A DNA stretch of 57,992 nt from Chlamydiota bacterium (GCA_013287365.1 JABDDY010000001.1:1-57992), one strand, 5' to 3'. Numbered from the stretch's first letter, positions 15,801 through 17,967 are shown. The notes: generated by a model not told the origin, from the letters alone. Numbers and translations are program-made.

Positions 15801-17967
15801 CCAGATCACACGTATAGAAACGCAGGATGCGCTTACTCGTACAATCAGAAAAGAGCTCTTAAACCCTCAAAAACTTGTTGTTTCATGCCAAGAGCTCACC
15901 CATGATCCTCATGGGAATTTGGTCTATCAGAGAGATCACCTCTATGAAAACGAGCTATTTAAAGGCACCCAAACCATTAGATATACTCATACCCCCGATC
16001 ATCGAGTAGCCAGCATCACAAGAGCCTTTGGAACCAAAGAGGCAAGGACAACAACCTACACCTATTCCCCCTCTGGGAAGATTGCGACAAAAACCCTTCC
16101 AGATGGTGTCACACTGACCTACACATACCATCCGCTCGGTTTTATGAACCGCTTAGATTCTTCGGATGGAAAAATCCACCACATATTTGCCCACAATAAG
16201 CTTGGCCATCTGAAATACGCACTTGATGCAAACTCCACCATTGCGATTCAAAGAGAGATCGACCCCTTTGGAAACGTCCTCCAAGAACTATTCTCGAGCG
16301 GCTTTAGAGTCAAAAAGGAGTACGACCAGTTCAATCGACTACTTTCCCTAAAAATGGATCGAGAAGGGGAGGTTTTTTATACTTATGATCCTCTGTTCTT
16401 GCGAGAAGTGACCAGAACCTCAAGGAGTGGCGCCACACTCTATTCCCATACCTATCAAGATTATGACCTCGATGGAAATCTCATTGTGGAAAATCTCATT
16501 GGAAATTTAGGCCAAGTTGTCCACGCAACTGACCCTAAAGGCCTAGAAGTTGACATTTCTAGCCCTTATTTCTCTCAGCAATGCGATTATGATTCGATCG
16601 GCAATTTAATCAGCACCACTGTCGATGGGACAGCGCATCATTACTCCTACGATCATCTCTCTCAACTCTCTTCAGAAAATGGCTTTCCTCAATCTTGCAG
16701 TTACGCTCATGACTCTCTCTACAATAGAACGCAGAGAAATGGAAAAACATCTACGATCAACGACCTGAATGAGCTTCTATCCGTAGAAAACGTCACTTGC
16801 TCCTATGATCTGAACGGGAATCAGCTCCTTAAAAAGACCCCTTCCGAAACGTTGTACTTCACCTATGACCCACTTAACCGGCTAACTGAAGCCTCTTCGG
16901 AAGAGAAAAAGGTCAATTTTGTCTACGATCCTCTGGGCAGGCGTTTAAGCAAAGTTGTCTCCACTAGAACCGCCTATGGATGGAAAGAGACAACTCATGA
17001 AGACTACCTATATCACGGACAAAACGAAATCGGAGCCTTTGCCTCCTCTGATCAGCCTAAAAACTTAAGGGTACTAGGACTTGGCAAAAACACTCCTACA
17101 ACTGTTGGCATAGAATTAGAGGGCCAAGTTTTTGCTCCTGTGATCGATGTGCAAGGAAACCTCTGCCGTCTCATCGACCTTGGCTCAAAGACACTGGCAG
17201 ATCGTTACGAGTTCACAGCATTTGGTGAAAAGCGAAACAAAGAGGAACATACGCTCAACCCTTGGCGGTTTGCTTGTAAGCGCTTTGATCCAGAACTTGG
17301 CCTCATCTATTTTGGTAAACGGTATTACGACCCCGAATTTGCTAGATGGATCACCACAGATCCTGCGGGATTTGTAGACGGAGCTAATCTCTACCAGTAT
17401 GTCTTCAACAATCCTTTTCTCTATAAAGATCAAGATGGCCAATTTGCTTTTCTAATTCCTCTGCTTTTTTGGGGTGCAGAAGCAGCGCTTCCCGCTTTGT
17501 CTGCTTATGCTGGTTATGCTATTGCTGGGGTTATAACTGGAGCGGTTGCTTATGGAGGGTATAAGGCTATTCAGACGCTAAATGAAAGAAGAGACAGCTA
17601 TTCTGCTGCAGATGATTACGCAGAGTATTCGATGCAATCCGAGGCATCTTGCGAAGTAGAGGAAAAGAAAAAACACAATACAAATCCTTTTGATGGACCT
17701 GTTGACGGAGAGGTGGTTGTCGTGGATGAGGCAGGTAACGCGATTAAAGTACCAGAAGGTAACTGGCTTACTGGATCAAAGGACGGAAAATGGGTTCAAG
17801 AAATGAAACCAGGAGTGGGCCCCAAAGGAGAACCTACGGGCCAGCGTAAAGATGGAGGAGGGCATCCGCCACCCAAACATACTGATGTAAGAGCAAATGA
17901 GCCACATGCTCATGTACCAGGTATTACTAATCCAGATGGTACCGATTGGTTGCCTTTGAAAAGATAA
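12826..17967 (+). CDS. RHS/YD-repeat polymorphic toxin with Sec signal peptide and variable C-terminal domain
   Basis: GTG start with GGAGG 10 nt upstream; signal peptide MRYLIALACCLLATPVFS. N-terminal GGLISPLSGQPVLKQTDLIIKG...LHRTY; many YD repeats (YRYDPRGRP, YTYDPLFL, FTYDPLNRL, FVYDPLGRRL). RHS core end: NPWRFACKRFDPELGLIYFGKRYYDPEFARWITTDPAGFVDGANLYQYVFNNPFLYKDQDGQ. Confidence 0.92.
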   Translation: MRYLIALACCLLATPVFSDEEPPREELFLSTPEQVSALTSEPSYLIGGLISPLSGQPVLKQTDLIIKGAQSIVLHRTYVPPYVPSSFPQHKHDPEEHNKRHLYHHLRNNYKGWQFYPHLKLELNPRSMQMRLSEPTGMTLDYRLSGPGFSETSLVSPPHAISNAAGEVPSGKYDPRNTRISYEENGNRVSVHATDGTIRIYLKKGWIANSCLYLLAKEILPNGKVLKYHYNEGGQLHSIESLDPKERYVYSSLRIAGTPWDGRCQFTSSSGLTVDYNYQKRSIEWKIKEKIDGMEQKERHKVVCPPILTSVSSPSYRHESLDYCERFLLSSYSGKEEIFNILHSGFGKEINHYRVHRLLLPVGQNDAFLPIHKFFYVPPVAGQKEGRTAVTNSDGTLIAYHFSKDLLITSIQYFGQNEVLKKEKLFSWDDNHWLKALEMRDGHKNTLYRKSFEYDRFGNPILELFTGDLTGKGTQETFTTKRTFSEDGRNLLLREETEEGKVLCLSYLPHTDLVTSKLTKEGDKIILREFSLYDDCHNLIQTISDDGSSEDKNDLSNVTQRTLTTYTLRQLAPFLHMPEWIEETYWEAGTEKPLKKSHLIYDQHGNVAQEEVYDAQGNHAYTICKTYNERGDVLSETNRLGQEATYRYDPRGRPEATFNFSQRIHTTFRHDAKGRLKAEIEKGDDGIVHETSSEYDFHDRRIQRKDFFQNTTHYVYDPLVSEVIKTDFPSIASIDGQATSVSTLSTYDPFGRELTKTDANGNTTTYRYNAYGSPVEMHYPDGSKEYFRYTNKGTLASHTDPDGVTIHFTYDVLGRALSKTYISENGEQLATETFTYNGFNPLTETDKEGNVKKLSYDGAGRKIREEFCGQATDFSYDSLGRLTTTCKHNGSNTLFIHYKRDLEDRILEERKRDSSNRLLYQINYSYDKDGNRETVTRYINGKEATSAFAYDSCHRQIEYRDAKGSVTRTEYNEGFLNHLGQKVLQRAVTDPRQITRIETQDALTRTIRKELLNPQKLVVSCQELTHDPHGNLVYQRDHLYENELFKGTQTIRYTHTPDHRVASITRAFGTKEARTTTYTYSPSGKIATKTLPDGVTLTYTYHPLGFMNRLDSSDGKIHHIFAHNKLGHLKYALDANSTIAIQREIDPFGNVLQELFSSGFRVKKEYDQFNRLLSLKMDREGEVFYTYDPLFLREVTRTSRSGATLYSHTYQDYDLDGNLIVENLIGNLGQVVHATDPKGLEVDISSPYFSQQCDYDSIGNLISTTVDGTAHHYSYDHLSQLSSENGFPQSCSYAHDSLYNRTQRNGKTSTINDLNELLSVENVTCSYDLNGNQLLKKTPSETLYFTYDPLNRLTEASSEEKKVNFVYDPLGRRLSKVVSTRTAYGWKETTHEDYLYHGQNEIGAFASSDQPKNLRVLGLGKNTPTTVGIELEGQVFAPVIDVQGNLCRLIDLGSKTLADRYEFTAFGEKRNKEEHTLNPWRFACKRFDPELGLIYFGKRYYDPEFARWITTDPAGFVDGANLYQYVFNNPFLYKDQDGQFAFLIPLLFWGAEAALPALSAYAGYAIAGVITGAVAYGGYKAIQTLNERRDSYSAADDYAEYSMQSEASCEVEEKKKHNTNPFDGPVDGEVVVVDEAGNAIKVPEGNWLTGSKDGKWVQEMKPGVGPKGEPTGQRKDGGGHPPPKHTDVRANEPHAHVPGITNPDGTDWLPLKR
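17443..17964 (+). other. C-terminal 174-aa toxin module of the RHS protein: Gly/Ala-rich hydrophobic segment plus unassigned His-rich terminal domain
   Basis: Begins right after the core-terminating ...YKDQDGQ. FAFLIPLLFWGAEAALPALSAYAGYAIAGVITGAVAYGGY is hydrophobic. The tail ...KDGGGHPPPKHTDVRANEPHAHVPGITNPDGTDWLPLKR has no family I can name. Confidence 0.6.

Follow-up and report, generated by a model that had tools for sequence, protein, structure and literature searches.

We analysed a 57,992-nucleotide stretch of DNA from a Chlamydiota bacterium (GCA_013287365.1, JABDDY010000001.1:1-57992), hereafter called the window, which carries a gene for a large Rhs/YD-repeat polymorphic toxin and, directly behind it, a small immunity gene (Table 1). 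This report deals with the C-terminal module of the Rhs protein. The peptide that an initial annotation had quoted for positions 17443-17967 (+) is the C-terminal part of a single open reading frame (ORF) at 12826-17967 (+). According to the Pfam search, RHS_repeat (PF05593) covers eight stretches of the encoded protein (E = 2.7e-51), and the NCBIfam model YD_repeat (TIGR01643) also matches (E = 2.5e-35), so that the shell repeats of Rhs/YD proteins are present. The repeats are followed by the Rhs-associated core with its two aspartyl motifs, DPAGF and DQDGQ. Since the TIGR03696 match ends at amino acid (aa) 1539, the C-terminal module begins one residue past the core. The initial annotation had placed the module directly after a core terminating in NPFLYKDQDGQ, and our translation was identical. 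The second aspartyl motif of the core (17425-17442, aa 1534-1539) reads DQDG in the window and DPDG, DPEG or DPNG in close relatives. By analogy with other Rhs and TcC proteins, aspartyl autoproteolysis is presumed to take place after Q1539. A signal-type N terminus similar to that of the window protein is found on the related chlamydial Rhs proteins of loci L001, L002 and L006.

Table 1. Features of the Rhs toxin gene and the adjacent immunity gene (positions in the window)
Feature	Position	Strand	Description	Basis or remark
Rhs/YD-repeat polymorphic toxin gene	12826..17967	+	1713 aa, GTG start	ORF list, translation
Predicted Sec signal peptide	12826..12879	+	MRYLIALACCLLATPVFS	judged by reading the sequence
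Rhs-associated core	17215..17442	+	aa 1464-1539, ending ...DPAGFVDGANLYQYVFNNPFLYKDQDGQ	TIGR03696, E = 1.3e-21
Hydrophobic Gly/Ala-rich segment	17443..17562	+	aa 1540-1579; putative short hydrophobic helix, Pro kink, ~21-aa small-xxx-small helix	
Acidic/Lys-rich linker	17563..17673	+	aa 1580-1616	
C-terminal toxin domain	17674..17964	+	97 aa, start HNTNPF; predicted all-beta; His/Asp/Arg motif	homology
Candidate active or metal site	17845..17913	+	R1674-x-D1676-G-G-G-H1680-x4-H1685-x-D1687-x-R1689-x4-H1694-x-H1696	
Shine-Dalgarno sequence	17969..17975	+	AAGGAGG	starts 2 nt past the toxin stop, ends 6 nt before the ATG
Cognate immunity gene	17982..18221	+	79 aa, soluble, no signal peptide or transmembrane segment	conserved adjacency

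The gene at 17982-18221 had not been mentioned in the initial annotation. The spacer between it and the toxin gene is 14 nucleotides (nt) long and holds a strong ribosome-binding site. In each of the contexts that were looked at first, an immunity homologue came right behind the toxin domain. A hidden Markov model of the family was then run on 49 non-redundant full-length loci, and in 40 of these it detected a homologue located -6 to +41 nt past the toxin domain. These homologues are 72-88 aa long and range from Chlamydiota to Betaproteobacteria and Myxococcota, including an orphan cassette of Burkholderia glumae. None of the 40 has a signal peptide or a hydrophobic stretch with a Kyte-Doolittle value of 1.6 or more, and their hydropathy maxima all stay under 1.5. 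A homologue also trails the toxin domain on carriers that lack the hydrophobic segment, such as MafB and PT-HINT proteins. Because the immunity proteins are soluble and have no export signal, the toxin should act in the cytoplasm. As in other Rhs toxin systems, there is a variable tip, an adjacent immunity gene and, in relatives, orphan cassettes. The terminal domain is a genuine polymorphic-toxin module, and we are highly confident that it is a toxin domain paired with a cognate cytosolic immunity protein.

The toxin domain belongs to a large family. A first search gave 30 short homologues, all from Chlamydiae-type metagenome-assembled genomes (MAGs). A profile search of 1.84 billion cluster representatives (50%-identity clusters) then yielded 338 proteins at E <= 1e-3, 279 of them at E <= 1e-10, and in almost all of the 338 the domain was located at the extreme C terminus. 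With 87% identity, a Parachlamydiales MAG is the closest relative of the window. Among the longer members, the carriers have RHS repeats, a SpvB/FG-GAP/TcdB_toxin_midN arrangement together with RHS repeats (TcB/TcC-like), PT-HINT or the Neisseria MafB N-domain; the MafB carrier P0129 has PF06255 at its N terminus. Some members are "MafB class 3" cassettes of N. meningitidis or N. gonorrhoeae with a WDWVKN junction. Species-representative genomes were also scanned, using alignment A2, and the domain was found in Chlamydiota, Verrucomicrobiota, Stenotrophomonas, Luteimonas, Rheinheimera and Alkalilimnicola, in Myxococcota, Desulfobacteraceae and Hyphomicrobiales, and in others. In a subset of members (P0147, P0078 and P0105), the domain is followed by a 50-aa extension, with a transmembrane (TM) helix and a WTIP motif, that matches positions 40-79 of Tox-WTIP. 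Tox-WTIP has been classed as a two-TM pore-former (Zhang et al. 2012). The window itself has neither a Pfam match to Tox-WTIP (PF15654) nor a WTIP motif, and the second half of that family is present only in homologues of the P0147/P0078/P0105 type.

Eight polar residues of the domain are strongly conserved. Across 253 unique domains, R1674 is kept in 98%, D1676 in 99%, H1680 in about 100%, H1685 in 88%, D1687 in 99%, R1689 in 91%, H1694 in 98% and H1696 in 99%. The His residues, in which the initial annotation had seen a hint of an active site, are therefore retained among homologues. Turn glycines and a C-terminal DGTPWLP motif are conserved as well. An AlphaFold2 model built with 27 diverse sequences had a predicted local distance difference test (pLDDT) score of 89.9 and a predicted TM-score (pTM) of 0.79, with six beta-strands and no helix. 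In this model R1674 and D1676 are on strand 5, H1694 and H1696 are on strand 6, and H1680, H1685 and D1687 are in the intervening loop, a placement compatible with a single clustered site. The conserved His residues, together with Arg and two Asp, fit an active or metal-binding site, as far as can be read from the sequences. A Foldseek search gave no analogue of the model in the PDB (best E = 0.59, TM-score 0.26) or in BFVD (best E = 0.23).

Searches for known relatives of the domain were negative. Pfam-A (2025) had no match for the window domain at E <= 1 or for 27 diverse members at E <= 5, and no relative was found by NCBIfam, PHROGs and PDB sequence or profile searches, in which the sole hint was an SH3 domain (Abl2; E = 1.3) over the N-terminal half of the toxin domain. 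No match was obtained by tblastn of plasmids and phages. The motif strings of the domain are absent from the searchable literature, and none of the families listed by Zhang et al. (2012) has the motif set found in the window. The text of Nachmias et al. does not tie PT1-PT9 to the domain and one of its supplements has no match; PT2, described as Neisseriaceae-specific, may correspond to the domain. For the MafB class 3 cassette, no published activity was found in the searchable literature. These results bear out much of what the initial annotation had said of the domain. It had proposed a terminal domain of about 90 aa, and the domain stands, with a length corrected to 97 aa by homology. It had assigned the domain to no named toxin family, which agrees with the empty searches of Pfam-A, NCBIfam and PDB sequences, and had found the AHH, GHH, SHH and colicin HNH spacings unsuitable, in line with the lack of any Pfam model match and with the helix-free, all-beta model. 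Of the checks it had proposed, the profile search gave no match to any family, toxic or non-toxic, and structure prediction followed by Foldseek gave a confident model with no analogue in the PDB or BFVD. Judged by such comparisons, the toxin family and its immunity family are new, neither of them being in Pfam, NCBIfam or PDB (PT2 of Nachmias et al. being uncompared by sequence).

We then considered the region between the core and the toxin domain. The stretch of about 40 aa of Gly/Ala-rich hydrophobic sequence that the initial annotation had noticed behind the core was recovered as aa 1540-1579; its 40 residues include 11 Ala, 6 Gly and a single charged one, and it is conserved in alignment A7. 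The top 19-aa hydropathy window of the entire Rhs protein is located in it (Kyte-Doolittle 1.73, versus 1.52 for the signal peptide). The composition alone is borderline unusual, since 98 of 2000 shuffled sequences contained a stretch of 40 aa in which no more than one residue was charged. We therefore regard the segment as real because of its conservation in homologues and not because of its composition. The motif in alignment A7 is F-x-F-x-I-P-L-x-x-W-G...L-P...G-x-x-A-Y-G-G-Y-K, and ten positions (F, P, W, G, P, G, Y, G, Y and K) are invariant in the six homologues. Residues 1558-1579 form a small-xxx-small ladder (S-x3-G-x3-A-x3-T-x3-A, G-x3-G and A-x3-G), and the immunity protein encoded by the adjacent gene is soluble. 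Pfam, including PT-TG, had no match to the segment; for PT-TG (PF14449), this holds at E <= 1 for window positions 17392-17673 and for a second type of segment described below. A profile search with alignment A7 returned one match, the profile being too short and compositionally simple.

A hydrophobic stretch directly after the core was also found on chlamydial Rhs proteins with other toxins, in L002, L006, L010 and L004. The toxins behind these stretches are Ntox37 in L002 (E = 5.4e-6) and an Ntox24-like domain in L006 (E = 1.1e-3), and those of L010 and L004 were matched to no named family. At least two sequence types of the post-core segment exist, that of the window and another reading ...GGYILGLGEILLGG...FGGFTFGLG.... 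The initial annotation had counted the segment as part of the C-terminal module. It is a constant element ahead of the toxin, shared by related chlamydial Rhs proteins, and lies outside the variable part. Within the toxin family, a strongly hydrophobic stretch was present within 60 aa past the core in 46% of the 69 members with a visible Rhs core end; of the 191 members with enough upstream sequence, 41% have a strongly hydrophobic stretch. An obligatory coupling of the segment to the window toxin was rejected on these figures. Because many carriers, such as the MafB and PT-HINT proteins, have no such segment, the toxin does not need it.

The orphan cassettes closest to the window, P0001 and P0002, start within the equivalent of the window linker (MQFDASCEEEERKKHNTNPF...). 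In L002, the linker ...MAKGSLGL.LNQAV.TEKKKK is common to the main Rhs protein and the orphan cassette behind it, and the two sequences part just beyond this linker. Because the linker is shared in L002 and the cassettes P0001 and P0002 begin in it, we place the cassette-swapping junction downstream of the hydrophobic segment. Orphan toxin-immunity cassettes are located downstream of Rhs genes in L002, L006 and L010. In Burkholderia glumae, the orphan cassette is downstream of the gene for a 5100-aa protein without a Pfam match, which is taken to be CdiA-like; an Imm40 gene comes next. The region 9064-10336 of L001, the closest relative (Parachlamydiales bacterium SW_7, JAGVMG010000060.1), has an Rhs orthologue cut down to a 289-aa N-terminal fragment with the same signal peptide and first domain as the window protein. 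This fragment is followed by a separate 111-aa orphan toxin cassette with its immunity gene, and then by truncated pieces, first of a second toxin and next of an immunity gene.

The Rhs gene of the window lies among ordinary chlamydial chromosome genes, encoding a CT398-like coiled coil, a fused SecDF, Lon and SHMT. Ten large neighbouring ORFs of the window were scanned; none is a type VI secretion system (T6SS) or TcA gene, and no PAAR, VgrG or chaperone gene was found among the scanned neighbours.

We propose that the terminal domain serves as the variable tip of an Rhs polymorphic toxin that a Parachlamydiales-like bacterium exports through Sec, with the immunity gene encoded alongside, and we put the probability of the explanation as a whole at about 65%. 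The Rhs shell would end at aa 1539 and cleave itself there, as inferred from other Rhs and TcC proteins. The fragment released would consist of the conserved 40-aa glycine-zipper-like hydrophobic segment, the charged linker and the 97-aa, presumably all-beta toxin. The latter belongs to the large family described above, unlisted in the databases searched, whose members from many phyla end Rhs, TcB/TcC-like, PT-HINT and MafB proteins. The invariant cluster R-x-D...H...(H)-x-D-x-R...H-x-H would form a catalytic or metal-binding site. In the cytoplasm, the likeliest activity of the toxin would be that of a phosphodiesterase (nuclease) on RNA or DNA, probably metal-assisted. This chemistry is suggested by the presence of four His and two Asp within 21 residues and by the commonness of nucleases among such toxins. 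Small cytosol-acting toxins of this size on carriers of this kind are mostly nucleases. We give nuclease activity of the domain slightly less than an even chance. The hydrophobic segment would most likely enter the membrane and help the attached toxin to cross it. The idea of self-translocation, raised in the initial annotation, draws its plausibility from a cytosolic immunity protein and a Sec-exported Rhs protein whose scanned neighbours include no T6SS or TcA gene; we hold the translocation role to be a tentative proposal. Precedents for it are the helices of mosquito SGS1 and the TM domains of prePAAR T6SS effectors, both taken up below. The two ideas may be combined, with a new-fold metal-dependent nuclease family (Rhs, MafB, CdiA-associated and TcB/TcC-like) and a post-core hairpin that serves Sec-secreted Rhs proteins as an autonomous translocation module, and we consider this joint claim unlikely to hold in full. 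If true, it would mean delivery of a cytosolic toxin without a T6SS, a TcA pore or a CdiA-type receptor pathway, a route undescribed for Rhs toxins.

Several observations weigh against this explanation or parts of it. Autoproteolysis is an assumption, and the second motif of the core is DQDG and not DPxG. The confident model depends on the alignment of 27 sequences, and an earlier run with 21 close homologues, which was not used, had a pLDDT of only 52.8. No profile or fold match to a nuclease or any other enzyme was found in Pfam, the PDB or the Foldseek searches of the PDB and BFVD, Foldseek being poor at detecting small beta domains. The second half of the hydrophobic segment is only moderately hydrophobic (Kyte-Doolittle 1.1-1.3), and many carriers of the toxin domain do without the segment. 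Finally, in 9 of the 49 loci, among them three of Stenotrophomonas, no member of the usual immunity family was detected behind the toxin domain. Two of these nine were inspected, L035 (Stenotrophomonas; 3256-3618) and L047 (3252-3653), and both encode there a different protein of about 120-133 aa with no Pfam match, which presumably represents another family of immunity proteins against this toxin. Several immunity families per toxin family are common in polymorphic toxin systems.

Other explanations start from the hydrophobic segment. It could itself be the toxin, acting by pore formation or depolarisation, with the His-rich domain as an accessory, for example in receptor or metal binding. 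Glycine-zipper membrane toxins are known (EsxX and the Caulobacter Cdz proteins, for instance), no other stretch of the Rhs protein is as hydrophobic as the segment, and P0147, P0078 and P0105 carry an extension that matches the second TM helix and the WTIP motif of Tox-WTIP. However, the immunity protein is soluble and tracks the terminal domain across phyla even where the segment is missing (MafB, PT-HINT), the nearest orphan cassettes (P0001-P0003) have the terminal domain without the segment, and a similar segment precedes unrelated toxin domains. The 88-100% conservation of eight polar residues in the terminal domain is, moreover, typical of an enzyme, and we consider a pore toxin very improbable. 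The segment could also have a structural role, packing on the hydrophobic inner wall of the Rhs shell or anchoring the released toxin in the producer membrane, with no part in entry into the target. The putative TM helices of the mosquito protein SGS1 pack on hydrophobic patches within the Rhs shell (PMC9935623). The conserved Pro, Trp and Gly positions of alignment A7 likewise suggest a specific fold and not a generic TM helix, and the moderate hydrophobicity of the second half and the many toxin carriers without such a segment point the same way. A structural role would leave membrane crossing unexplained, given a cytosolic target and no T6SS or TcA genes among the scanned neighbours, and the segment is kept with several different toxins. 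Structural and translocation roles can coexist; we regard a purely structural role as somewhat unlikely, if still worth serious attention.

The terminal domain may likewise be read in other ways. As the carrier is Sec-exported and would reach the periplasm or cell surface, a zinc-dependent, LAS-type hydrolase of the cell wall acting in the periplasm comes to mind, and the domain is small and beta-rich. LAS enzymes have H-x(3-6)-D and H-x-H motifs that are tens of residues apart. The window sequence H1680-x(6)-D1687...H1694-x-H1696 is superficially similar, but only 6 residues separate D1687 from H1694. None of the 40 immunity homologues has a signal peptide or hydrophobic stretch, which argues against periplasmic action, and no M23, M15 or other peptidase was matched by Pfam in 27 members at E <= 5 or by Foldseek. 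An LAS-type peptidase (M23, M15 or M74) was rejected on the spacing, on the lack of a profile or fold match and on the absence of export signals from the immunity proteins, and we give it hardly any weight. The solubility of the immunity protein and the profile tests speak against it, as they do against the pore toxin. The domain could also be a remote member, so far overlooked, of a known family of small beta-rich RNases, of the Ntox24 or colicin E3 type, which it resembles in size and beta content. The Ntox24-like toxin of L006 has a motif (D..G.PIP...DHGRP..H.NPH.H...GGTP) that resembles the window motif, and a single-sequence hhalign comparison of the two covered 67 columns with a weak E value of 0.022; in the unassigned toxin of L010, NPRHHEQHYHV can be set beside DPRA..PHAHV of the window. 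On the other hand, the profile-profile comparison of alignment A5 with the Ntox24-like alignment A8 gave E = 0.2 and a probability of 0.3%, the Pfam models Ntox24 and colicin E3 (Cytotoxic) matched 0 of 27 members at E <= 5, and the PDB profile search and Foldseek were empty. Membership in such a family seems improbable to us. No hhalign link of the toxin domain to Ntox24, Ntox37 or the L010 toxin was significant. The toxin tips of L010 (4990-5346) and L006 (5500-5820) share short motifs with the window domain, which hints at a loose superfamily of the three, with profile comparisons that are not significant.

Behind the immunity gene, the window has an array of five tandem paralogous ORFs of about 117-146 aa (18208-20465, +; YFHDG...WENIPDL) with 38-46% mutual identity. 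The fifth is frameshifted (20090-20350 and 20352-20465). No toxin fragments are found between them, and none of the five has a Pfam or PHROGs match. A homologue in L004 (638-1021, 40% identical) is located directly behind a different, unassigned Rhs C-terminal toxin. The array looks like a set of orphan immunity genes against a toxin that is not encoded in the window. The gap between paralogues four and five holds what remains of another copy of the immunity gene, 21 aa long (19981-20043, +) and 57% identical to residues 54-74. The GC content drops over 17982-20422, to 33.8% in the immunity gene and 33.4% in the paralogue array; it is 46.4% in the whole window, 45.2% in the Rhs gene and 45.9% in the toxin module. 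This drop suggests that the immunity genes differ from the toxin in origin or constraints.

Polymorphic toxins have much to offer in new enzymes and in tools, nucleases among them. The family described here is widespread, its fold is predicted with confidence and its immunity partner is defined, which makes it directly testable. It is, all the same, a further cassette in a class whose great diversity is well known. The recurrence of a hydrophobic segment ahead of unrelated cytosolic toxins is relevant to how Sec-exported Rhs toxins without an injection machine cross the target membrane. In obligate intracellular Chlamydiae, such a system suggests that co-resident bacteria compete or that the toxin acts on the host.

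With the Rhs/YD toxins known from T6SS Rhs effectors, Bacillus WapA and the Tc-toxin TcC, the window locus shares the RHS repeats, a core with two Asp motifs, a variable tip, an immunity gene immediately downstream and, in related loci, orphan cassettes. It differs from them in having a Sec signal peptide, no PAAR, VgrG or TcA gene among the scanned neighbours, an unannotated toxin and a conserved post-core hydrophobic segment. The MafB class 3 cassettes of Neisseria have the same toxin domain as the window, but their delivery module is the MafB N-domain instead of Rhs, and no hydrophobic segment lies upstream of the toxin. SGS1 of mosquitoes is an Rhs/YD shell protein with a supposed origin in bacterial endosymbionts, and its post-cleavage putative TM helices are stored within the Rhs shell (PMC9935623). 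SGS1 and the window protein have the same order of an Rhs shell, an aspartyl-protease site, TM or hydrophobic helices and a toxin. The two sequences are dissimilar, however, with about 230 aa of multi-pass helices and Tox-SGS in SGS1 and a single segment of about 40 aa and an unrelated toxin in the window. In Tse6, hydrophobic helices are proposed to carry a cytoplasm-acting toxin across the inner membrane of the target. For T6SS effectors of the prePAAR type, N-terminal TM domains are implicated in movement across target-cell membranes (PMC7773334). Those TM domains are N-terminal and need Eag chaperones and a T6SS, whereas the window segment is C-terminal to the core and the scanned neighbours include no chaperone or T6SS genes.

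Among small toxin domains, the window domain is like the beta-rich RNases (Ntox24 and colicin E3) in its length of about 90-100 aa, its mostly beta structure, its conserved His, Asp/Glu and Arg, and its pairing with a small cytosolic immunity protein; such RNases are also present on chlamydial Rhs proteins (the Ntox24-like toxin of L006). It has no significant sequence, profile or fold similarity to Ntox24 (PF15529) or colicin E3. It also resembles the HNH/beta-beta-alpha-Me toxins (Tox-AHH, GHH, SHH and colicin DNases) as a His-rich C-terminal toxin on a polymorphic-toxin carrier, but it does not have an HH dyad or conserved Asn in the expected arrangement. An HNH/beta-beta-alpha-Me assignment was rejected, as no Pfam match was found (window, E <= 1; 27 members, E <= 5) and the model has no metal-ligand helix. 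The predicted fold of the toxin domain is possibly new. Compared with these systems, the locus is an ordinary Rhs polymorphic toxin-immunity system, and its novelty lies in the toxin and immunity families.

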